Below are positions 2,205-38,728 of a stretch of 41,145 bases of DNA, piece after piece (position 1 is the first letter of the stretch; each line of letters begins with the position of its first letter). Source of the DNA: an uncultured Candidatus Saccharibacteria bacterium. Lineage in GTDB: Bacteria > Patescibacteriota > Minisyncoccia > Phycocordibacterales > UBA9973. Where the stretch lies: NCBI GenBank assembly GCA_964366465.1, contig CAYITR010000001.1, positions 1 to 41,145 of the forward strand, written 5' to 3'. The notes beneath the pieces were generated by a model. It saw nothing but the letters and a program-made list of their open reading frames with translations, did not search any database and was not told where the DNA came from. A program made the position numbers and the translations under genes.

Positions 2205-3257
2205 TTAACTCACGATGGCAAAAATTATTCCAATAATAGCAAAGACCACGGACAGCACCCAGTAACGCATGGTGACCTTCTCTGCCGACCAACCAAGGGC
2301 CATAAAGTGGTGATGAAGTGGCGCCAGTTTGAAAACCCTCTTCCCTCCCCGCCATTTTTTGGAAGCAAGTTGTAAGATAACTGAAAATGAAGTCACAACC
2401 AAAGGAAATGCCACCACTGGTAAAATCAAAACCGAATCCGTCAGGAACGCTAGAGTAGAGAGAGTAATAGTGAGCCCCATAACCCCCGTTTCACCCATAT
2501 AAAATCTCGCCGGCGGAATATTAAACCAAAGAAATACTAAAGTAACCCCAGAGACAACTCCCGAGAAAGCCGCCAGGTCTATCTGGTTGTTGGCGAAAGC
2601 AATAGCTGAATATGCAGCAAATATCGAAGCCAATACTCCGCCCGCAAGCCCATCAAGGCCGTCAATAACCCCGCCGGAAAAAGTTGCCAATGCCACAATT
2701 ATAAAAAATGGGATTATTAAAATACCCATAAAGAATTCTCCATAAAACGGCACGTGAATAGAGTTCATGTCGAGTTTATAGAAGAACCACATACCGATAA
2801 AGAGGGCGAGGAGTGCGACGAGCATGGCCTTCCACTTGCGCCATGACGCATCGTCCTTAGCTAGACGCCCACTGCCATAAATTTGTAATAGGTCGTCCCA
2901 GAAACCGATAAGTGAACCAATCAGAAGTGTAAAAAGCGGTATTAGAGTCTGATTGCGACTAAAAAAGTTCATCTTCTCAGTATAAGTTGAGGGGAAAAAA
3001 ACAGGAGCTAAATAAAAAATCAAAGTAGTCAGCAAAACTGAAATCCAAATAATCATCCCACCCACCCGCGGAGTATGTAACTCTTCCCTCTCGTTGTGCA
3101 CCCTTAGGAAATCTTCCGAGGAGGCGCTTCCATTGCGGGAATACTTCTTCCACATCTTGTTTTTATAGAAGAAATGCGTGGCAATCGGGGTAATTAAAAG
3201 CCCGATAAAGAACGCGACAGCCATCGGCAAAAAGATTTTGACTAAATCCAAATACAT
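2205..3257 (-). CDS. mraY: Phospho-N-acetylmuramoyl-pentapeptide transferase MraY
   Basis: 350-aa polytopic protein with MraY motifs WDDLLQIYG, GVIDGLDGLAGG, NIPPARFYMGETG and APLHHHF. An extended -10 (TGCTATTCT, plus 3264-3272) lies 6 nt upstream of the ATG. Confidence 0.9.
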   Translation of the reverse strand: MYLDLVKIFLPMAVAFFIGLLITPIATHFFYKNKMWKKYSRNGSASSEDFLRVHNEREELHTPRVGGMIIWISVLLTTLIFYLAPVFFPSTYTEKMNFFSRNQTLIPLFTLLIGSLIGFWDDLLQIYGSGRLAKDDASWRKWKAMLVALLALFIGMWFFYKLDMNSIHVPFYGEFFMGILIIPFFIIVALATFSGGVIDGLDGLAGGVLASIFAAYSAIAFANNQIDLAAFSGVVSGVTLVFLWFNIPPARFYMGETGVMGLTITLSTLAFLTDSVLILPVVAFPLVVTSFSVILQLASKKWRGGKRVFKLAPLHHHFMALGWSAEKVTMRYWVLSVVFAIIGIIFAIVS

Positions 3258-3313
3258 CTGTTTAGAATAGCATTTCTACTGAATTTTTTCTACTTTTTGA
3301 ACTTTACAACTAC

Positions 3314-5062
3314 CTAGTAAACCTCTTGCTGATAACACTTCTCACAATATACTATCTCCGGCCGGTCGGGGGCATATGAAGTCTCAAACCCTACTTCACA
3401 CTTACCTTCGTGATTAGGGTGTTTTTTATCACACATACAAGTCCGACGCCAAAGCTCTAGGGGGTTTCTTTGTTTTAGACGATTAAAGTGTCGACAATTC
3501 GAGCATAGTCGGGGTAATGGGAAATTCATCCTTTTGTAGAATTGAAATTCTTCAGCAGTTATCTTGAATGCTTCAGTGCATTGTTCTTTACAGGTACCTT
3601 GATGAGAACATTCAAAAACTTTACCGACTACATCTTCTTGCACATCGACAATAGAGTTTGGAATTTCTTCTGTTGTAATATCTATCGTGTAATTTCTTTT
3701 TTCTGTATTTTTCCAGACATAACCTTTGCCTCCTGCTTCTTCGGCCGTAAGAGGAAAATATTCCTGCGCTATCGTTTCATTATAAGAAAAGGGTGACAAT
3801 TCTGTAGGGAAAAATTCCCCATACTTGTAAACTATACCCTTCTTGTCCACATAGGGCGTATCATTCATATGCTCAATGATTTTAGGTAGAAGTCTTTCAT
3901 ACTCCGCTTTGGTGTATTGCTTGTTTAATATACAATATTGCTTTTTCCGGAGCCCAATACAGCCAAAACAGTGTTTAATATTGTGGCAATTTAAGCAATA
4001 ACTTGTATCTTCTGAATTGTATAAAGTAATGCCAGAGAAATTCCTTGAGCCATGGTTGGCGTCTACTAATTCGCAGGAAAGTTCATTTTTAAATATTCCA
4101 TTGCCATCGTATGTATCTTTTAAATAAAGCGCGCTGTAAAGAAATTTTGAATTTTCAGCTTCCATAAATAAGTCGAAGCAATACAAACAACTTTTCGAAT
4201 TATTAATATTATCTCCAGTACAGTTGGCGGAAGAAAAGATATTAGCAAAACGATGAATAGAAGGCATGTATATTTCTTGTAAAAAACGATTTTGAATACT
4301 AGTAAAGTCTTGGTAACTATCCATTTTAAAAGTTTCTATTATTATTAAGTATTCTTCCCTAGAATATTGTTTATTCCAAATGCAGTAAGATTTACTAACT
4401 AAGTTGGCACAACCAAAACAATCTGTACAATTTCGGCAATTGTATAAAAAATATGAATCTGTGCAGTTTTTTGAATTACGACTCCAGAATAATTTATACG
4501 AGTCAAAGCAACCTTCGCATTCATATGAGAGTTCGCATTTGGTGCACATAAACAAATCCTGAGAGTCTTTGCATTGCATAAGTTTGTTGCCATATCGAAC
4601 ATTTTCATTCCAACCCGACCCAAAGACAAGGTAGCAATTTTTGTTGCCATCCATGTAATTGGTGTACTCGCAGTTTACGGAATTAATTACAGACAAAGCC
4701 ACAAGCGGTACGTTGTGTAAAAGTTTGGAAAATTGAGTAAAAAAGGGAACTGAAAAATCATATACTAGACCGTAATCAAACGCATCCCACTTGTCACTCC
4801 ACCAATATTCATTATCAAAAACAACCAAAGACTCTTCCGGGTCATACATGCTTATAATTTCTTCGTTATGACCTGGGGCAGCACATTTTACCCTGTGAAG
4901 TGATCGTTCATTTCGCCATGACATCCTTCTCTGATTTCTGCACTCCGGGCAAAACGTCGGTGGCGGGACTTTTATCTTTTCATAAAATCCAAAATCATCC
5001 GGCTCAATGGTGAAGTCGTTCTTACAGTTTTGGCATATTCGATTTTCACTTTTATGTTCCAT
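3314..5062 (-). CDS. Cys/His-rich multi-zinc-ribbon protein, paralog 1 (function unknown)
   Basis: 582-aa ORF with 37 Cys by my count. N-terminal C-x2-C-x24-C-x2-C ribbon (CQNCKNDFTIEPDDFGFYEKIKVPPPTFCPECRNQRR). An internal duplicated module ends CFGC..L..K.YCI.NKQY[ST]..EY. A second F.I..EE..FYKR..P.P..C..CRH ribbon is followed by CMCD and the terminal H-x-H-x3-C-x17-CxxC (..YAPDRPEIVYCEKCYQQEVY). No TM segment or signal peptide. Confidence 0.8.
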   Translation of the reverse strand: MEHKSENRICQNCKNDFTIEPDDFGFYEKIKVPPPTFCPECRNQRRMSWRNERSLHRVKCAAPGHNEEIISMYDPEESLVVFDNEYWWSDKWDAFDYGLVYDFSVPFFTQFSKLLHNVPLVALSVINSVNCEYTNYMDGNKNCYLVFGSGWNENVRYGNKLMQCKDSQDLFMCTKCELSYECEGCFDSYKLFWSRNSKNCTDSYFLYNCRNCTDCFGCANLVSKSYCIWNKQYSREEYLIIIETFKMDSYQDFTSIQNRFLQEIYMPSIHRFANIFSSANCTGDNINNSKSCLYCFDLFMEAENSKFLYSALYLKDTYDGNGIFKNELSCELVDANHGSRNFSGITLYNSEDTSYCLNCHNIKHCFGCIGLRKKQYCILNKQYTKAEYERLLPKIIEHMNDTPYVDKKGIVYKYGEFFPTELSPFSYNETIAQEYFPLTAEEAGGKGYVWKNTEKRNYTIDITTEEIPNSIVDVQEDVVGKVFECSHQGTCKEQCTEAFKITAEEFQFYKRMNFPLPRLCSNCRHFNRLKQRNPLELWRRTCMCDKKHPNHEGKCEVGFETSYAPDRPEIVYCEKCYQQEVY

Positions 5063-5075
5063 TTTTTTCTTTAAG

Positions 5076-5115
5076 CTACTTTAGTTTAGTAAAGTAATTT
5101 ACTTTGATAAAGTAG
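5076..5115. promoter_or_regulatory. 40-bp TACTTT/AAAGTA inverted-repeat module, 36/40 identical to the yerC-like promoter at 13451-13490
   Basis: CTACTTTAGTTTAGTAAAGTAATTTACTTTGATAAAGTAG lies in the 59-bp gap between the two Cys-rich genes. The last 18 nt (TTTACTTTGATAAAGTAG) are identical to 13473-13490. Confidence 0.6.
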
Positions 5116-5121
5116 TTAAAT

Positions 5122-6876
5122 TTAATATACTTCCGCTTGATAACACTTCTCACAATACACGATCTCCGGCCGATCGGGAGCGTAGCTGGTTTCAAACTCC
5201 ACCTCACACTTCCCCGCTCCGTGGTTGTGGTGGTTAGTTTTGTCGCACATGCACTCCCTGCGCCAGAGATGTAGTGGATTCTTTTGTTTTAAACGTTTGA
5301 AATGCCTACAATTCGGACACAAATGAGGAATTGGTAAACTGAGCCTCTTGTAAAAAACTAGTTCTTCAGAAGTTATTTTAAAAGCTTCGGTGCAAGACTC
5401 GTTGCATTTCCCCTCGTGCGCACAACCGATAACTTTACCGACGATAGAATCATCCGCGTCGTTAATATTGTCAGGTAATTCTTTTTCCTCAATTTCAATA
5501 TGATAGTTTCTTTGTTCGGGATTTTTCCAGGCAAAGCCAAAACTCTCTGCGCCTTGTTTGTCTAAGGGGTAATATTCCTGCGCAATTGTTTCGTTATATG
5601 CAAAAGGTGATAATTCCGCCGGAAAAAATTCGCCATATTTATACACCCTGCCCTTCTGATCAATGTAAGGCATTGTATTCATGTGCTCAATAATTTTCGG
5701 TAAGAGTTTCTCGTATTCTTCTTTTGTGTATTGCTTGTTTAATATACAATACTGCTTTTTACGAAACCCGATACAGCCGAAACAGTCCTTAACATCATGA
5801 CAATTCATGCAATAATAAGTATTTTCCGAGTTATATATGGTTATACTAGACAGATTCCTGGATCCAATATTAGCATCTACGAGTTCATATGATAATTCAT
5901 TTTTAAATATACCATTTCCGTCGTAAGAATCCTTTAGGTTGAGCGCGCTATATAAATATTTGGAATCTTCGGTTTCTTGATATAGATCAAAACAATTTAG
6001 ACAATTTTTAGCATTGTTTATATTGTCTCCAGTGCACCCTACGGACGAGAAAATATTAGCGTAACGGTGAATCGAAGAAAGATATAATTCGTTATAAAAA
6101 CGCTTCTTTATATTTTCTAATGCTTGGTCACTGTTGATTTTATATTCTTTTAAAATATTGAAATATTCATCTCGCGAATACTGCTTGTTCCAAATACAGT
6201 ATGATTTACTAATTAAATTAGTGCAGCCAAAACAATTTGTGCAGTTTCTGCAGTTATATAAAAAATAAGAATCCGTGCAACTTTTAGAGTTACGAGACCA
6301 AAATAAACGATATGAGTCCAAACAGCCCTCACATTCATAAGAAAGCTCACATTTTGTACACATTAGTAGGTCTTGTGAATCTTGGCACTGCATTAGTTTG
6401 TTTCCATATCTTACATTCTCGTTCCAGCCCGCGCCAAAAGTAAGGTAACAATTTTTGTTACCATCCACAAAATTTGTGTATTCAGAGTTTATGGAATTAA
6501 TTACAGAGAGAGCCACAATCGGAACATGACGGAGAAGTTTATTAAACTGAGTAAAAAAGGAAGTCGAGAAATCATAATCTATTCCGCTATCTAGCGCATC
6601 CCACTTGTCGCTCCACCAATATTCAGTATCGACAACATTGAAATTCTCGCTATCGCTATACATGCTGATAATGTCCTCAGAATGTCCAGGCACACGGCAT
6701 TTTACCTTATGTAAAGATCGCTCATTCCGCCAGGCCATTCGTCTCTGGTTTCTGCACTCCGGACAAAACGTAGGTGGCGGAACTTTGATCTTCTCATAAA
6801 ATCCGAAATCATCCGGCTCGATGGTGAAGTCGTTTTTGCAGTTTTGACAGGTTCGGTTTTCGTTTGTAAATTCCAT
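5122..6876 (-). CDS. Cys/His-rich multi-zinc-ribbon protein, paralog 2 (function unknown)
   Basis: 584 aa, collinear with and highly similar to paralog 1 (same N- and C-terminal ribbons, same central repeats). Preceded by GGTGGAG 4 nt upstream of the ATG. Confidence 0.8.
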   Translation of the reverse strand: MEFTNENRTCQNCKNDFTIEPDDFGFYEKIKVPPPTFCPECRNQRRMAWRNERSLHKVKCRVPGHSEDIISMYSDSENFNVVDTEYWWSDKWDALDSGIDYDFSTSFFTQFNKLLRHVPIVALSVINSINSEYTNFVDGNKNCYLTFGAGWNENVRYGNKLMQCQDSQDLLMCTKCELSYECEGCLDSYRLFWSRNSKSCTDSYFLYNCRNCTNCFGCTNLISKSYCIWNKQYSRDEYFNILKEYKINSDQALENIKKRFYNELYLSSIHRYANIFSSVGCTGDNINNAKNCLNCFDLYQETEDSKYLYSALNLKDSYDGNGIFKNELSYELVDANIGSRNLSSITIYNSENTYYCMNCHDVKDCFGCIGFRKKQYCILNKQYTKEEYEKLLPKIIEHMNTMPYIDQKGRVYKYGEFFPAELSPFAYNETIAQEYYPLDKQGAESFGFAWKNPEQRNYHIEIEEKELPDNINDADDSIVGKVIGCAHEGKCNESCTEAFKITSEELVFYKRLSLPIPHLCPNCRHFKRLKQKNPLHLWRRECMCDKTNHHNHGAGKCEVEFETSYAPDRPEIVYCEKCYQAEVY

Positions 6877-6883
6877 AACTCCA

Positions 6884-6939
6884 CCTCACCCGACCTTCGG
6901 CCACCCTCTCCTTGCCAAGGAGAGGTGCTGGGGGTGAGG
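6884..6939 (-). promoter_or_regulatory. GC-rich compound stem-loop between the dac 3' end and the Cys-rich paralog 2 start
   Basis: Outer arms CCTCACCC (6884-6891) / GGGTGAGG (6932-6939). Inner 9-bp stem CCTCTCCTT (6905-6913) / AAGGAGAGG (6917-6925). No U-tract, and the minus-strand 3' arm overlaps the GGTGGAG Shine-Dalgarno-like sequence of the downstream gene. Confidence 0.5.
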
Positions 6940-6942
6940 TCT

Positions 6943-8374: not shown

Positions 8375-8391
8375 AATTATACTTTACACTT

Positions 8392-9138
8392 TTAACTTTC
8401 TACTTGAGGAGATTGTTTTTCCAAAACAATCTCCTCGCTCCCCAGCTCCTGCACAGCGTTTAGTATACCTTGCCTGACCATTTCGAGCATAGCCAGGAAG
8501 CCGACGATGACTTCAACCTTCTCCTCCTTTGTCTTACTCTCACCTTTCTTGTGATTGGCGAAATCTCGGAAGCTCATAGTGATAGAGCTCTGAATGCGTT
8601 CAGTCAGCTTGTCGATCATTTCTTCGATACTTATAACCTTACGCACTTCCACGTTTGGCATAAATTGCTTCTTCGGCATTGCTCCGAGCACTTCCTTGGC
8701 GAAGGTCATCATACTCTCGCGGGTGATCTGGCTATCGGGTAAAAATACAACAACATCATTCCTTCTTTCCTCTGAGGCAAAAATAATATTTTTACCAAAA
8801 TTGCTTTTTATATTTAATCCCAACCTGGTGAAAAGTTCGTAGAGTCGCAACCTTTCTTCTAAATTTTTAATGTCGCCTTTTTCTTCGTCAGTTAATTCTA
8901 GATTCGGCAACAGTGATTTTGATTTAATTAAAATTAGCGTTGAAGCTACGAGGATAAAACTGGAAATCTCGTTGGGGTGAATAGCTCCCAACTTGTTCAT
9001 GTATTGCAAATAGTCTTCCGTCACTGCCGAGAGCGACACGTCGTTTATGTGTAGCTTTCGCTTCTCCACTAAGCCTAAAAGCAGGCCAAACGGCCCCTCA
9101 AACCCAGCAGTTTTTATAGTATAACTATTACTTTCCAT
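8392..9138 (-). CDS. scpA: Segregation and condensation protein A (kleisin)
   Basis: 248 aa with FEGPFGLLLGLVEKRKLHINDVSLSAVTEDYLQYM, a typical ScpA N-terminus. Extended -10 TGCTAACAT (plus 9145-9153) lies 6 nt upstream of the ATG. Confidence 0.85.
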   Translation of the reverse strand: MESNSYTIKTAGFEGPFGLLLGLVEKRKLHINDVSLSAVTEDYLQYMNKLGAIHPNEISSFILVASTLILIKSKSLLPNLELTDEEKGDIKNLEERLRLYELFTRLGLNIKSNFGKNIIFASEERRNDVVVFLPDSQITRESMMTFAKEVLGAMPKKQFMPNVEVRKVISIEEMIDKLTERIQSSITMSFRDFANHKKGESKTKEEKVEVIVGFLAMLEMVRQGILNAVQELGSEEIVLEKQSPQVES

Positions 9139-9768: not shown

Positions 9769-9804
9769 GTGTAAAAAGTAGTCAAAAAAGATATACTACG
9801 CTTG

Positions 9805-12285
9805 ATGAAAATACGAAAACAGCCAAGCGTCCGATTGTCTAAAAATGTGATCCCGAAAAGCTATGAAATACAGCTTCGACCGGATCTGGAGAACTTCACT
9901 TTTGAAGGAGTAGAAACCATCCATTCTAGTATTTTGCAAAAGACTAGAACAATAACTCTGCATTCTAAAGAATTAGAAATTGAGACTGCGGAAGTCGGAC
10001 TTCCGCACGAGAAAATGTTTGCAAAGATTAATTACGATATAAAATCCGAGACAGCAACTTTTACATTCCCGAAAATTATTCAAAAAGGAGAAATAAAACT
10101 TACTTTAGTTTTCAAAGGCATACTAAATGACAAAATGCGGGGCTTCTATAAAAGCTCTTACATTTTCGACGGCAAAGTTCACCACATTGCCACCACTCAA
10201 TTTGAAGCCACAGACGCTCGCCGAGCTTTCCCCTGCTTTGACGAGCCAGCGCAGAAAGCAGTGTTCCACTTGTCGCTAATTGTACCGAAAGGCAAAAGCG
10301 TTATCTCAAATACCTTGCCCGTCTCAACCCTAAAACATGAAGCGGGTTACGAAGTTGTCAAATTCGCACCTACACCAAAGATGTCCACCTACCTCCTCGC
10401 ATTTATCGTCGGCGACTTCGAATACATCGAGAAGAGAACAAATCGTGGCGTCATCGTCCGCGTTCACACCACGGCCGGTAAGAAACACCAGGCGAAGTTT
10501 GCCCTCGACTCTGCGGTAGAAATTTTAGAATTCTATGAGAAATATTTCGACATCCCCTACCCACTCAACACTCTCGACATGATTGCCATTCCAGACTTTC
10601 AAGCTGGGGCGATGGAGAACTGGGGCGCCATAACTTATCGCGAGTCCGCACTCTTGGTGGACGACAATCATTCTTCCGCTTCCAACAAGCAATGGGTGGC
10701 GCTAGTCATCGCCCATGAGATAGCTCACCAGTGGTTCGGCAACTTGGTGACCATGGAATGGTGGACGCATTTGTGGCTCAATGAAGGCTTCGCTTCTTAC
10801 ATAGAATATTTGGCGATAGATAAACTTTTTCCAAAGTGGGACATCTGGACCCAATTCTGCACGAATGATCTCGGAGTTGCGCTCCGTTTAGATTCATTAC
10901 AAAGCACTCATCCGATAGAAATACCCGTGCATCATCCGGATGAAATTGGGGAAATTTTTGATGAAGTATCATACTCCAAGGGTGCTTCGATAATCCGCAT
11001 GCTCGCCAGTTATTTAGGTGAAAAAGATTTTCGCGACGGTTTGCGATATTATCTAAAAAAACACAGTTACAAAAACACCGAGACCCTCCACCTCTGGCAA
11101 GCATTTGAAAAAGTCTCGTGTAAGCCCGTGGTTAAAATGATGCGAACCTGGACATCAAAACCCGGCTACCCTGTAGTTAAGTTGAAAGTGGAAAGTGGAA
11201 AGTTAAAAGTCACTCAAGAAAGATTTTTTAGTAATCCTGTTTCAAAAAATAAAATAAAAGATAACACAAAATGGGAATTCCCTTTGAATTTCAAAAATAA
11301 CAAAGTAAACTTCGGTGAGGCGGGATTTTTCCGAACTGCTTATTCTAAAGAATTATTAGAGAAACTTCGCGAGCCTATTTTGAATAAAAAGTTGAGCTCG
11401 CGCGACAGGCTCGGCATCATCCGCGACCTTTTTGCCTTATCTGAAGCCGGCATAGTGCCCACTACCGATGCCCTTTCATTCTTGTCCGCATATAGAAACG
11501 AAGACAACTATACCGTCTGGCTCGAGATAGCGGGAGGCTTGGCTCGGCTAGAGCAACTCTTCCCCGAAGACGGTCTTCGGGGAAAATTAAATCAGCTTAC
11601 ATTGCAATTATTCTCGCCACTGTGCACCACTTTGGGCTGGGAAAAGAAAGCAGATGAGCCTCACACCGACACCTTACTTCGCTCGCTCGCCATCTCACGC
11701 GCAGGTCGTGCTGGTGATAAGAAAATAATTGTTAAAGCAAAAGCAAAGTTCGCCTCAAAGAATGTTCCCCCCGACATCCGCGGAGCTGTCTACGGCATAG
11801 TTGCTACACACGGTGGTCTGAAAAAATTCCGTGAATTTACCGCTAGGTACAAGAAAGAAACTTTGCATGAAGAAAAAAATCGCCTTGGTGGTATATTGGG
11901 AGATTTCAAAAATCCAAAAATTCTCAAACAAGTTTGCGAATTCGCTGTTTCTAAGCACGTCCGCCCGCAAGACACCATAGGCATCATCTCTGGAGTCGGG
12001 GTGAACCCCAACGGACGCGACATCTGGCTCGACTTTGTTATGAAAAATTGGAAAATGTTGGTCTCGCGCTACGGCGACGGCGGGCACACCCTCGCCCGAC
12101 TAGTGAAAGCCATAAGTGGAAGCGCAGAGGAAAAGCATCTTAGAATTTTCAAGCAATTCTTCACCGCCAATGAAGCCCCTGGAGCCAAAAGAAGCATCGA
12201 GCAAGTCCTCGAGCGACTCGAAGGCAACATCGCTTGGAGAAAAAGAGATGCGAAAATTATTGACGAATTTCTAAAAAAAATTTAA
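9805..12285 (+). CDS. pepN: Aminopeptidase N family (M1 zinc metallopeptidase)
   Basis: GAMENWG exopeptidase motif and HEIAHQWFGNLVTMEWWTHLWLNEGFA (HEXXH-x18-E). I prefer ATG 9805 over the track's TTG 9802. TATACT at 9792-9797 lies 7 nt upstream. Confidence 0.9.
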   Translation: MKIRKQPSVRLSKNVIPKSYEIQLRPDLENFTFEGVETIHSSILQKTRTITLHSKELEIETAEVGLPHEKMFAKINYDIKSETATFTFPKIIQKGEIKLTLVFKGILNDKMRGFYKSSYIFDGKVHHIATTQFEATDARRAFPCFDEPAQKAVFHLSLIVPKGKSVISNTLPVSTLKHEAGYEVVKFAPTPKMSTYLLAFIVGDFEYIEKRTNRGVIVRVHTTAGKKHQAKFALDSAVEILEFYEKYFDIPYPLNTLDMIAIPDFQAGAMENWGAITYRESALLVDDNHSSASNKQWVALVIAHEIAHQWFGNLVTMEWWTHLWLNEGFASYIEYLAIDKLFPKWDIWTQFCTNDLGVALRLDSLQSTHPIEIPVHHPDEIGEIFDEVSYSKGASIIRMLASYLGEKDFRDGLRYYLKKHSYKNTETLHLWQAFEKVSCKPVVKMMRTWTSKPGYPVVKLKVESGKLKVTQERFFSNPVSKNKIKDNTKWEFPLNFKNNKVNFGEAGFFRTAYSKELLEKLREPILNKKLSSRDRLGIIRDLFALSEAGIVPTTDALSFLSAYRNEDNYTVWLEIAGGLARLEQLFPEDGLRGKLNQLTLQLFSPLCTTLGWEKKADEPHTDTLLRSLAISRAGRAGDKKIIVKAKAKFASKNVPPDIRGAVYGIVATHGGLKKFREFTARYKKETLHEEKNRLGGILGDFKNPKILKQVCEFAVSKHVRPQDTIGIISGVGVNPNGRDIWLDFVMKNWKMLVSRYGDGGHTLARLVKAISGSAEEKHLRIFKQFFTANEAPGAKRSIEQVLERLEGNIAWRKRDAKIIDEFLKKI

Positions 12286-13249: not shown

Positions 13250-13380
13250 AAAAAAACCTGCCGATGCAGGAATGATATAGACTAAGTATCTTCCCCACAA
13301 AGGGCTGGATTTGGCACCTACTTTTTTAAAGGGTTGCCGGTGGTTCATTGAGCCAGTGCTCTCCCCACACTCTCGATAAT
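13250..13380 (-). promoter_or_regulatory. SAM-I (S-box) riboswitch with terminator, upstream of metK
   Basis: Minus strand reads TTATCGAGAGTGTGGGGAGAGCACTGGCTCAATGAACCACCGGCAACCC..GTAGGTGCCAAATCCAGCCC..GGGGAAGATA. This matches the S-box core (UUAUCaAGAG..GAGGGAcUGGCCCgAUGAAaCCcGGCAACC..GGUGCCAAuUCCagC..GAaAGAUa). It is followed by CCTGCatcgGCAGG plus T7. Confidence 0.85.
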
Positions 13381-13450
13381 ATATTTAATTGTATAAACAT
13401 TATACCACACACAAAACACCACAAAAAATAGTTTTCCACACCTATTCCAA

Positions 13451-13490
13451 CTACTTTACTTGACTAAAGTACTTTACTTTGATAAAGTAG
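13451..13490 (+). promoter_or_regulatory. Promoter/operator module of the yerC-like gene (TTGACT-17-TGATAAAGT) built from TACTTT/AAAGTA inverted repeats
   Basis: CTACTTTACTTGACTAAAGTACTTTACTTTGATAAAGTAG. -35 TTGACT (13460-13465), 17-nt spacer, extended -10 TGaTAAAGT (13480-13488), then 7 nt to ATG 13496. Confidence 0.6.
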
Positions 13491-13495
13491 CCGAT

Positions 13496-13882
13496 ATGAG
13501 TAAAGGAATGAACAAAAATACAAAGGTGGAAACTGTGCGAGCCATTGGCCGGCAGGTCAATTGGAGCTCTGTGGCCAACAGGCGCCTAGTAGAAGCCGTG
13601 CTTGCCTTGCGCACCAAGGACGAAGCCGAGCGCTTCTTGCGCGACCTTATGACAGAAAGCGAGATCAAAGAATTTGCAGACCGTCTCGAAGCTGCTTCCC
13701 TTTTATATAAAGATGTTCAATACAACGCCATTGAAGAATCGGTCAAGCTGTCTTCGACCACAGTCGCCCGCATTGCCAAATGGCTTAACGGCCCTCTCGG
13801 TGGCTACCGACTAATACTTAAAAGAATTTCTCACCATAACAACTCTTCCTCGTTTGGGAAAGGGTTGCGTTCGGCTTCGTAA
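13496..13882 (+). CDS. TrpR-related YerC/YecD-family DNA-binding protein
   Basis: EAVLALRTKDEAERFLRDLMTESEIKEFADRLEAASLL..SVKLSSTTVARIAKWL fits the YerC/YecD (Trp repressor fold) pattern, with an HTH near STTVARI. Start moved from the track's TTG 13460 to ATG 13496 on promoter geometry. Confidence 0.7.
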   Translation: MSKGMNKNTKVETVRAIGRQVNWSSVANRRLVEAVLALRTKDEAERFLRDLMTESEIKEFADRLEAASLLYKDVQYNAIEESVKLSSTTVARIAKWLNGPLGGYRLILKRISHHNNSSSFGKGLRSAS

Positions 13883-16716: not shown

Positions 16717-16735
16717 ATTTACTTTACAAAACTAA

Positions 16736-16761
16736 AGTTACTTTACTTAAGTAAAGTAACT
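16736..16761. repeat. Perfect 26-bp palindrome related to the TACTTT/AAAGTA module
   Basis: AGTTACTTTACTTAAGTAAAGTAACT equals its own reverse complement. It lies between convergent genes. Two copies of TTACGTAA (16778-16785 and 16790-16797) follow and can form an 8-bp hairpin overlapping the downstream stop codon. Confidence 0.8.
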
Positions 16762-21010: not shown

Positions 21011-21018
21011 TACTCAAT

Positions 21019-21042
21019 ACTATCATACTAGTATGCTAGTAT
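21019..21042. promoter_or_regulatory. TrpR-type operator candidate (CATACTAGTATG core), site 1
   Basis: ACTATCATACTAGTATGCTAGTAT has a 12-bp perfect palindrome at 21024-21035 with CTAG boxes 8 bp apart. The 20-mer ATCATACTAGTATGCTAGTA is identical to 38705-38724. Confidence 0.6.
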
Positions 21043-21074
21043 TTAACAGAAAGAAAGTCAAGAAGGTATTTTAC

Positions 21075-21362
21075 CTAACTGTTGATAACTTTCAGGGCTC
21101 GTCTGAACCCACCTTCTTTCTTGCGCATTTCGCGAGAGCCTCGAGTGACCGTAGCTATGCCAAGGTGCAGGTCTTCAGCAATGGATTCTTGGTATTCCCC
21201 TTTTTCCAACTTCTTCACAATCTGCCAACGCACAGCAATATTTTCAAATTCATGCGGTGTCAAAATGGCTTGAATGAAATCTGCCAAGAGTTGCTTGTCT
21301 TTGGAAATTTTTGATATAACCTCTATTAACTCTTTTTTATATTGTTCAGAATTATTTTTCAT
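21075..21362 (-). CDS. trpR: Trp repressor (TrpR) family transcriptional regulator
   Basis: 95 aa. ILTPHEFENIAVRWQIVKKLEKGEYQESIAEDLHLGIATVTRGSREMRK parallels the E. coli TrpR core ([49 protein letters not shown]). Immediately downstream of trpS. Confidence 0.75.
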   Translation of the reverse strand: MKNNSEQYKKELIEVISKISKDKQLLADFIQAILTPHEFENIAVRWQIVKKLEKGEYQESIAEDLHLGIATVTRGSREMRKKEGGFRRALKVINS

Positions 21363-21386
21363 TTTTTCTTTCCTCTTTTAGAATAT

Positions 21387-21407
21387 CACCATACTAGTAT
21401 GCTGATA
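21387..21407. promoter_or_regulatory. TrpR-type operator candidate, site 2 (upstream of the trpR-like gene)
   Basis: CACCATACTAGTATGCTGATA carries the same 12-bp palindrome at 21390-21401. It overlaps the putative extended -10 TGaTATTCT of the trpR-like gene on the minus strand. Confidence 0.6.
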
Positions 21408-21417
21408 TTTGTACTGC

Positions 21418-34032: not shown

Positions 34033-34138
34033 ATTTTTTTATTTTAGCATTTTTGCTGAATTTTTTCTACCTTACAACTTTATACTTTCTACTTTACCTG
34101 TCCCGTAGTGAGCTTTGCTCTACTACTGGGATAACCAC

Positions 34139-35860: not shown

Positions 35861-35902
35861 CGAATTTACTTTATAACTTTATACTTTCTACTTTATAACT
35901 AC

Positions 35903-38668: not shown

Positions 38669-38702
38669 CTAGCCACGAGAAATTTTTTGCTTCTTGTTTC
38701 AT

Positions 38703-38728
38703 ATCATCATACTAGTATGCTAGTAAGC
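38703..38728. promoter_or_regulatory. TrpR-type operator candidate, site 3 (upstream of the kinase/Cys-rich operon)
   Basis: ATCATCATACTAGTATGCTAGTAAGC has the palindrome CATACTAGTATG at 38708-38719. It lies in the 63-bp gap between the ATPase-2 stop and the kinase start. Confidence 0.6.

Follow-up and report, generated by a model that had tools for sequence, protein, structure and literature searches.

Organization of the locus

The window, i.e. the whole stretch of 41,145 nucleotides that was analysed, contains a 40-bp module over the promoter of a TrpR-family regulator gene, with further copies at 5.1 kb, between two tandem Cys-rich genes, and at 16.7 kb. The features considered here are as follows.

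3314 to 5062, minus strand: Cys-rich paralogue 1, with the 5.1-kb module directly upstream of it
5076 to 5115, unstranded: double module, made of 5077 to 5096 (perfect arms) and 5095 to 5114 (one mismatch)
5122 to 6876, minus strand: Cys-rich paralogue 2, whose stop codon is 6 bp away from the module
13283 to 13382, minus strand: SAM riboswitch leader of the divergent metK (Rfam RF00162, 64.6 bits)
13432 to 13440, plus strand: DnaA-box-like element TTTTCCACA (consensus TTATCCACA), between the divergent metK and hisR-like promoters
13451 to 13490, plus strand: double module, two overlapping 20-bp HisR-type palindromes over the promoter of the YerC/HisR-like gene
13496 to 13882, plus strand: gene for a YerC/YecD (HisR-type) regulator of the TrpR family, 128 aa (PF01371, TIGR02531)
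16720 to 16758, unstranded: double module, made of 16720 to 16739 (one mismatch) and 16739 to 16758 (perfect), the latter inside a 26-bp palindrome

Since metK and its SAM riboswitch lie on the other side, the 13.4-kb region is a divergent promoter pair. The regulator scores 58.1 bits against PF01371 (cut-off 27) and 58.2 bits against TIGR02531 (YerC/YecD, cut-off 42.2), and only 16.3 bits against the TrpR equivalog TIGR01321 (cut-off 67). It aligns over its full length to the structures 3FRW, 3KOR and 3G1C of the PDB (E~1e-8), the last being the HisR structure of E. eligens, and the orthologues of the same genus align from its first residue. The recognition helix of HisR carries equivalents of TrpR Thr81 and Arg84, with a Tyr in place of Arg69 (PMC9413887). 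When the corresponding region is aligned to 3G1C, ...YNAIEESVKLSSTTVARIAKWLN... stands opposite ...YLDIAEKTGASTATISRVNRSLN...: the alignment retains the Tyr, the Arg, the LN and one Thr, and has a Thr in place of the Ala.

The Cys-rich genes encode a protein of about 580 aa without Pfam match, which has 11 paralogues in this genome and over 7,900 homologues; those that are named come from Patescibacteria. Within the genus, the number of copies per genome ranges from 0 to 26, mostly in tandem arrays, for genomes of 0.4 to 0.8 Mb; this is an unusually large load of paralogues for such small genomes.

The repeating unit of the module

As originally predicted, the segments 13451 to 13490 and 5076 to 5115, whose sequences had been quoted correctly, are identical at 36 of 40 positions. 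They share the 18-mer TTTACTTTGATAAAGTAG, which is found at no third place in the 738-kb assembly that was searched (75 contigs, 41.7% GC, 88% complete). After the 5.1-kb copy, the 13.4-kb 40-mer is best matched in the genome by a pair of copies on contig C18 (33/40); in a control with 20 shuffled genomes the best match was 24 to 27 of 40, versus the 36 observed.

The site geometry had been given as TACTTT-N3-AAAGTA, which proved wrong. The true repeating unit is a 20-bp palindrome, TACTTTA-N6-TAAAGTA; each double module contains two of them, which overlap by 1 to 2 bp and start 18 to 19 bp apart. Genome-wide we identified 7 exact palindromes, and 12 with at most one mismatch, compared to no exact TACTTTA/TAAAGTA site at any of the other arm spacings considered (0 to 5 and 7 to 12). 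The shorter core CTTTA-N6-TAAAG is present at 11 sites, versus 0 to 4 at other spacings. The arms are perfect while the N6 varies among sites. The 6-N3-6 parse, which has just 3 exact sites in the genome, one of them intragenic, was dropped for the 7-N6-7 one.

The 5.1-kb copy is a true member of the site family of the 13.4-kb module. The same family includes the perfect 26-bp palindrome at 16736 to 16761, which is present as announced. Outside the window, the genome contains:

C9:4446: single perfect site
C18:8175 and C18:9982: two double modules

The promoter of the regulator gene

At 13.4 kb the two palindromes, both with perfect arms, are the following predicted operator sites.

13452 to 13471, unstranded: site 1, TACTTTA-CTTGAC-TAAAGTA
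13470 to 13489, unstranded: site 2, TACTTTA-CTTTGA-TAAAGTA

The promoter scan returned TTGACT-17-TAAAGT with an upstream TG (13460 to 13488), and the -35, spacer and extended -10 of the YerC-like gene are indeed inside the module. The -35 TTGACT (13460 to 13465) corresponds to the N6 of site 1 plus one base, and the extended -10 TGaTAAAGT (13480 to 13488) has its TG in the N6 and its hexamer in the right arm of site 2. The start codon of the regulator, ATG 13496, is located 7 nt past the -10, so the mRNA initiated at this promoter is probably leaderless.

The TTATCCACA 9-mer was searched in the orthologous promoters, with counts anchored on gene orientation. It is exact in 9 of 22 and within one mismatch in 14 of 22, for an expected background of about 0.004 exact occurrences per 72 bp. 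It lies 6 to 10 or 18 to 20 bp upstream of the -35, two distances that are about one helical turn apart. This distribution suggests a DnaA input into the HisR-like promoter.

Conservation across the family and the phylum

A sample of 100 genomes of the same family contains 21 with an orthologue of the regulator, the proteins being 47 to 62% identical. All 21 have the same module directly upstream, with ACTTTAcTTGACTAAAGtaCTTTAgTTTGcTAAAGT followed by the ATG, and in 19 of them the gap between -10 and ATG is 5 to 9 nt; this conserved spacing points to widespread leaderless initiation in the group. Column conservation and consensus were taken over 22 orthologous promoters (the 21 relatives and the present genome):

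Arm upstream of the -35: 0.91
-35: 0.95
Promoter spacer: 0.93
-10 arm (right arm of site 2): 0.99
Flanks of the module: 0.44 to 0.51

The spacer, which is free to vary in an ordinary promoter, and an arm outside the polymerase hexamers are thus conserved, which indicates a bound protein. This promoter architecture, kept with its spacer upstream of the orthologues, gives good support to autoregulation.

The exact motif is present in 18 of the 22 family genomes that have the gene (41 hits), and in 8 of the 79 that do not, with one hit each, which is the level of the reversed-pattern control. In a sample of the whole phylum, 54 of 300 genomes have a homologue. The homologue's own promoter contains CTTTA-N6-TAAAG in 17 of 28 more distant cases examined, several of them with 18-bp tandem pairs, and the phylum-wide form of the motif is ...CTTTA-N6-TAAAGtg. 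The most distant homologues of the phylum (38 to 48% identity; loci L079, L088-L090 and L092-L094) have a different promoter palindrome, TTAACATGCTAACATG-like, which suggests from its sequence a sister subfamily with altered specificity.

Comparison with known repressors of the TrpR family

TrpR of E. coli is a small dimeric repressor which depends on a co-repressor and has operators at trpR, trpEDCBA and aroH. Its palindromic operator of about 20 bp overlaps the promoter, its dimers bind in tandem, and it regulates its own gene. The present regulator resembles it in fold and family, and as a predicted small dimeric repressor with a palindrome of about 20 bp on the promoter. The half-sites differ: CTTTA/TAAAG in the module versus GNACT/CTAG for TrpR, and the 13.4-kb module contains neither the GNACT half-sites nor the CTAG centre of an E. 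coli-type TrpR operator. The TrpR motif is quoted as TGTAcTnGTnnACnAgTACA in the study of HisR cited below (PMC9413887).

The closest known system is that of YerC, now described as HisR, the histidine repressor of the TrpR family (Ashniev et al. 2022, BMC Genomics 23:558, PMC9413887). HisR operators are 20-bp palindromes, cacTTTA-N6-TAAAgtg, in Firmicutes, Actinobacteria and Synergistetes; HisR of Ruminococcus gnavus binds its operator in vitro only with histidine; and autoregulation of hisR is predicted by an upstream site in 183 of 492 genomes, about 37% (PMC9413887). The likeness concerns the protein family (PF01371; TIGR02531, YerC/YecD), the 20-bp palindrome with its identical core (tACTTTA-N6-TAAAGTa here) and the presence of sites before the regulator's own gene. 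Because the core is identical to the published consensus, the autoregulatory operator is supported, and since this consensus is experimentally supported for the family, the regulator and its operator can be paired with good confidence from the sequence alone.

The present case differs from the published ones in several respects. The host belongs to Patescibacteria (Nomurabacteria/Paceibacteria-type), a phylum outside the published study. The two sites form a fixed 18-bp tandem that covers the -35 and the -10 of a promoter which probably gives a leaderless mRNA, and a DnaA-box-like element is attached to this promoter. Additional sites are located within arrays of an uncharacterised Cys-rich gene family, and no genes for histidine biosynthesis or for a YuiF-type histidine permease were found. 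In the same published work, HisR2 paralogues are tied to tyrosine and tyramine genes in Enterococcus, Carnobacterium and Paenibacillus (PMC9413887). Like them, the present protein is a member of the HisR family whose predicted regulon is unrelated to histidine biosynthesis; unlike these second copies, which stand beside tdcP-tdcA-tyrT, it is single-copy, with varying neighbours and no evident metabolic target. HisR2 nevertheless provides a precedent for re-targeting within the HisR family.

An autoregulatory operator of the YerC-like protein, as had been proposed, is very probably what the module represents: it is kept in the 21 relatives and its core is the HisR/YerC consensus. We are confident, on these grounds, in reading the 13.4-kb module as a tandem operator of the HisR type, through which the regulator controls its own, probably leaderless promoter. 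The module is a solid but largely ordinary regulatory element, of the known HisR type. A dimeric repressor loaded with its co-repressor would occupy both sites and, sitting on the -35 and the -10, would keep RNA polymerase off the promoter and stop its own production. By analogy only, the co-repressor would be histidine. The proposal taken as a whole, i.e. tandem HisR-type operators, self-repression and additional copies of the same type, seems to us likely.

Copies outside the regulator promoter

The 5.1-kb module fills, as described in the original prediction, the 59-bp gap between two tandem Cys-rich paralogues, upstream of paralogue 1. A double module also occupies a junction of tandem paralogues on C18, and another follows the last C18 paralogue. 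At the junction copies the sense TAAAGT arm is located 14 to 15 nt before the downstream ATG. For the paralogue at 3314 to 5062, the TAAAGT arm 15 nt before the ATG is the sole promoter-like hexamer, and this gene would be the best case for control by an additional site. An antisense promoter had also been suggested at 5.1 kb: a promoter-like plus-strand match, TTGATA-16-TATACT, does start inside the module, but it is not conserved. From genome to genome the junction module changes in orientation and in its spacing to the following start codon: it is inverted in the relative G113, and a single site abuts the start codon in G109. The C9 site is upstream of a DUF167-like gene.

Judged by their sequence, the 5.1-kb, C18 and 16.7-kb copies are genuine HisR-type sites, of uncertain role. 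Together with the C9 site, they would most likely put the neighbouring genes under the same repressor; a function of the junction and other copies as sites of this same protein is, in our estimation, about as likely as not. A simple operator model does not account for the several copies found directly after a stop codon or flanked by convergent genes (16.7 kb, C18:9982 and relatives).

Some features of the copies at 5.1 kb, 16.7 kb, C18 and C9 agree with the absence of any regulatory role. The modules are found 6 to 8 bp past Cys-rich stop codons, between or after tandem paralogues, and before the first gene in none of this genome's arrays; C18:9982 comes after the last gene of its array, with no same-direction gene downstream; and most family relatives have the self site only. 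These copies would then be relics, or would have been carried along by duplication or gene conversion of the Cys-rich genes with their 3' flanks. We nevertheless regard this as unlikely. The C1 and C18 junction modules are identical at 36 of 38 positions, while the flanking genes have about 43% amino acid identity, and junction sites recur in the relatives G113 and G109; both observations favour function over passive duplication. Other sites are unlinked to Cys-rich genes (16.7 kb and C9), the C9 site recurs at the same place in G114, and the arms remain perfect despite the varying N6.

We consider it rather improbable that the palindromes outside the promoter are transcript hairpins (intercistronic terminators, processing sites or stabilisers) instead of protein-binding DNA. 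As RNA, the modules would have folding energies of -8 to -15 kcal/mol (z-scores -2.6 to -3.7), and many copies come after stop codons. The 16.7-kb module lies between convergent genes, its minus strand scored as terminator-like, and the segment 16736 to 16761 with its T-rich tail looks like a terminator for the convergent pterin dehydratase gene. In G018, moreover, two 40-bp palindromes carry the core at their tip, with outer arms that are self-complementary in each but differ between the two. The stems are however A/U-rich, with one G-C pair per 7-bp arm. Across the 22 promoters the arms are invariant rather than covarying, and the changes that do occur are uncompensated, which counts against a hairpin. 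The module of the regulator promoter is upstream of the start and untranscribed. Finally, a specific 7-mer at a fixed N6 suits recognition by a protein and is unneeded by a hairpin.

The G018 palindromes (loci L032 and L033) are perfect, share the HisR core TACTTTAGTTAACTAAAGTA and have CTTCTGGATT.../TGTTGGGATT... as outer arms. They are intergenic and not obvious promoters, one being beside the 3' end of a gene and the other upstream of rplJ-rplL. A different element, the GC-rich hairpin leader CCTCACCCC...CTCTCCTTGnCAAGGAGAGG...GGTGAGGTGG, precedes the first gene of two Cys-rich arrays, at about 6880 to 6940 of the window (minus strand) and about 1930 to 2000 of C26. It would sequester a Shine-Dalgarno-like GGTGAGG and may be a structured regulatory RNA.

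Recognition of the palindrome by the HisR-like protein is also the point questioned by perfect sites in genomes without the gene: three in G107 and one in G118, both members of the genus that are at least 99% complete and whose TrpR-fold genes belong to other subfamilies only. Such sites could reflect a recent loss of the gene, another binder, or a role independent of the regulator. A divergent HisR hidden in the gene-less genomes was considered and rejected, their TrpR-fold genes being TrpR-type (G118) or of a third subfamily (G101, G107). More generally, the palindrome might be read by another factor, or be a two-faced -10, with no autoregulation implied: TAAAGT can be read on both strands and is found, -10-like, 5 to 9 nt before 16 start codons, and the antisense match mentioned above starts in the 5.1-kb module. 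We find this very doubtful, given that the motif is the experimentally supported HisR consensus, that family genomes without the gene are at background level, and that RNA polymerase contacts do not explain the conserved spacer and the arm upstream of the -35.

Direct repeats with TAAAGT

The shared 21-mer and the similar 26-mers reported near the Cys-rich genes are present, the former within 34074 to 34096 and 35873 to 35895, the latter as 3256 to 3296 and 34033 to 34073 (80% over 41 nt). They are not, as had been thought, relatives of the module tied to the regulator; they consist of direct TAAAGT repeats. The following copies of the element were identified.

35873 to 35895, minus strand: TAAAGTAGAAAGTATAAAGTT, just before the start codon of Cys-rich paralogue 3
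34074 to 34096, minus strand: behind Cys-rich paralogue 3 and ahead of a DUF5674 gene
8378 to 8400, minus strand: precedes scpB
Elsewhere in the genome: C4:4003, C17:833, C18:1550, C18:6466, C34:36 and C38:2890

These direct repeats (TAAAGTAGAAAGTATAAAGTTATAAAGTA) end 5 to 9 nt before the ATG, and the genes that follow them here are Cys-rich paralogues, rplB, rplM, scpB and those of secreted proteins. The element is present in 13 of 21 genomes of the genus, some of them without a YerC-like gene. Its inclusion in the HisR regulon was rejected in view of its position before rplB, rplM and scpB and its presence in regulator-less genomes. The repeats are probably a separate class of leaderless promoters, with TAAAGT as the -10.

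Hexamers of the form TANNNT, with TATAAT far ahead, are located 5 to 9 nt upstream of many ATGs genome-wide, a pattern suggestive of frequent leaderless mRNAs in this organism. At this distance TATAAT is the commonest hexamer, before 66 of 711 crudely called genes, versus 16 for TAAAGT, and this refutes a generic -10 context for the palindromes. That the similarity between copies comes from the A/T-rich promoter context of a genome with 41.7% GC, where TAAAGT-rich direct repeats are common before start codons, can practically be discarded in the face of 36/40 identity against at most 27/40 in shuffles, the exact N6 specificity and a reversed-pattern control near zero.

Other TrpR-fold genes and their palindromes

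A second TrpR-fold gene is present in the window, with a palindrome of its own.

21075 to 21362, minus strand: second TrpR-fold gene
21382 to 21410: its palindrome, ATATCAnCATACTAGTATGnTGATAT, ahead of the gene

No similarity between its product and the HisR-like protein was detected by BLASTP. Copies related to ATATCAnCATACTAGTATGnTGATAT are found at 21016 to 21044 and 38700 to 38728, and a fourth, near-perfect one at C15:781. These TrpR-type CTAG palindromes (CATACTAGTATG, at 21024, 21390, 38708 and C15:781) form a family separate from the module. The copy at 38700 precedes a kinase/Cys-rich operon, and the C15 copy precedes a Cys-rich paralogue. The view that both Cys-rich loci are decorated with motifs of the two TrpR-fold regulators therefore has to be restricted: locus A has the HisR-type pair, whereas locus B has only the CTAG palindrome of the other regulator (38700) and the unrelated direct repeats.

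A third TrpR-fold subfamily (MPHISKK..., 132 to 143 aa) was observed in G101 (L064) and G107 (L065), which have no HisR-like gene. It has its own upstream palindromes, e.g. ACATACGATATATCGTATGT.

Histidine link, regulon and perspectives

The 88%-complete genome was searched for HisD (histidinol dehydrogenase), HisA/F, HisG and, for transport, a YuiF-type permease, and none of these turned up; in five near-complete relatives that bear the regulator, no histidine enzyme was above cut-off. With no histidine biosynthesis or YuiF-type transport genes found, the classical HisR regulon is absent. There is likewise no HisR-type site in the hisS promoter, and a histidine link was set aside on these three counts. 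Apart from the regulator itself, no conserved regulon was found among the additional sites of relatives and the gene neighbours, as these sites adjoin unrelated genes (a membrane protein, Kbl-like, msrB, a lipoprotein). The neighbours of the regulator gene also vary among the loci of the 21 relatives.

A much broader scenario can be imagined, which we hold to be speculative and rather doubtful. A HisR-type repressor would have been kept as a self-limiting sensor in organisms that do not make histidine, and wired to DnaA through the phased box. In this lineage, its operators and those of TrpR would have been recruited into the arrays of the greatly expanded family of Cys-rich zinc-ribbon genes, whose paralogues would be switched by the amino acid supply of the host. 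If true, an obligate symbiont would in this way choose, according to its nutrient supply, among paralogues of a surface or effector-like kind.

Hardly any work has addressed how transcription is controlled in the ultra-small CPR/Patescibacteria, and the 128-aa protein and the 40-bp duplex are concrete reagents for a first DNA-binding test in the phylum. Two questions are raised by these results: what a "histidine repressor" senses and controls in organisms without a histidine pathway, and why HisR and TrpR sites sit in the arrays of Cys-rich genes, of which a 0.8-Mb genome has up to 26 copies.

Two minor observations concern the surroundings of the regulator gene. In 6 of the 21 relatives (L006, L008, L010, L011, L012 and L021), a protein of about 290 aa (258 to 378 aa; INDWVD...KIACEAEEGR...YPWR), without Pfam match and not found in the present genome, is encoded directly downstream of the regulator. 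In the window, a regex scan alone indicated a tandem GAAAGTGGAAAGTGGAAAGT repeat at 11184 to 11206 (plus strand), inside an ORF of 827 aa (9802 to 12285).
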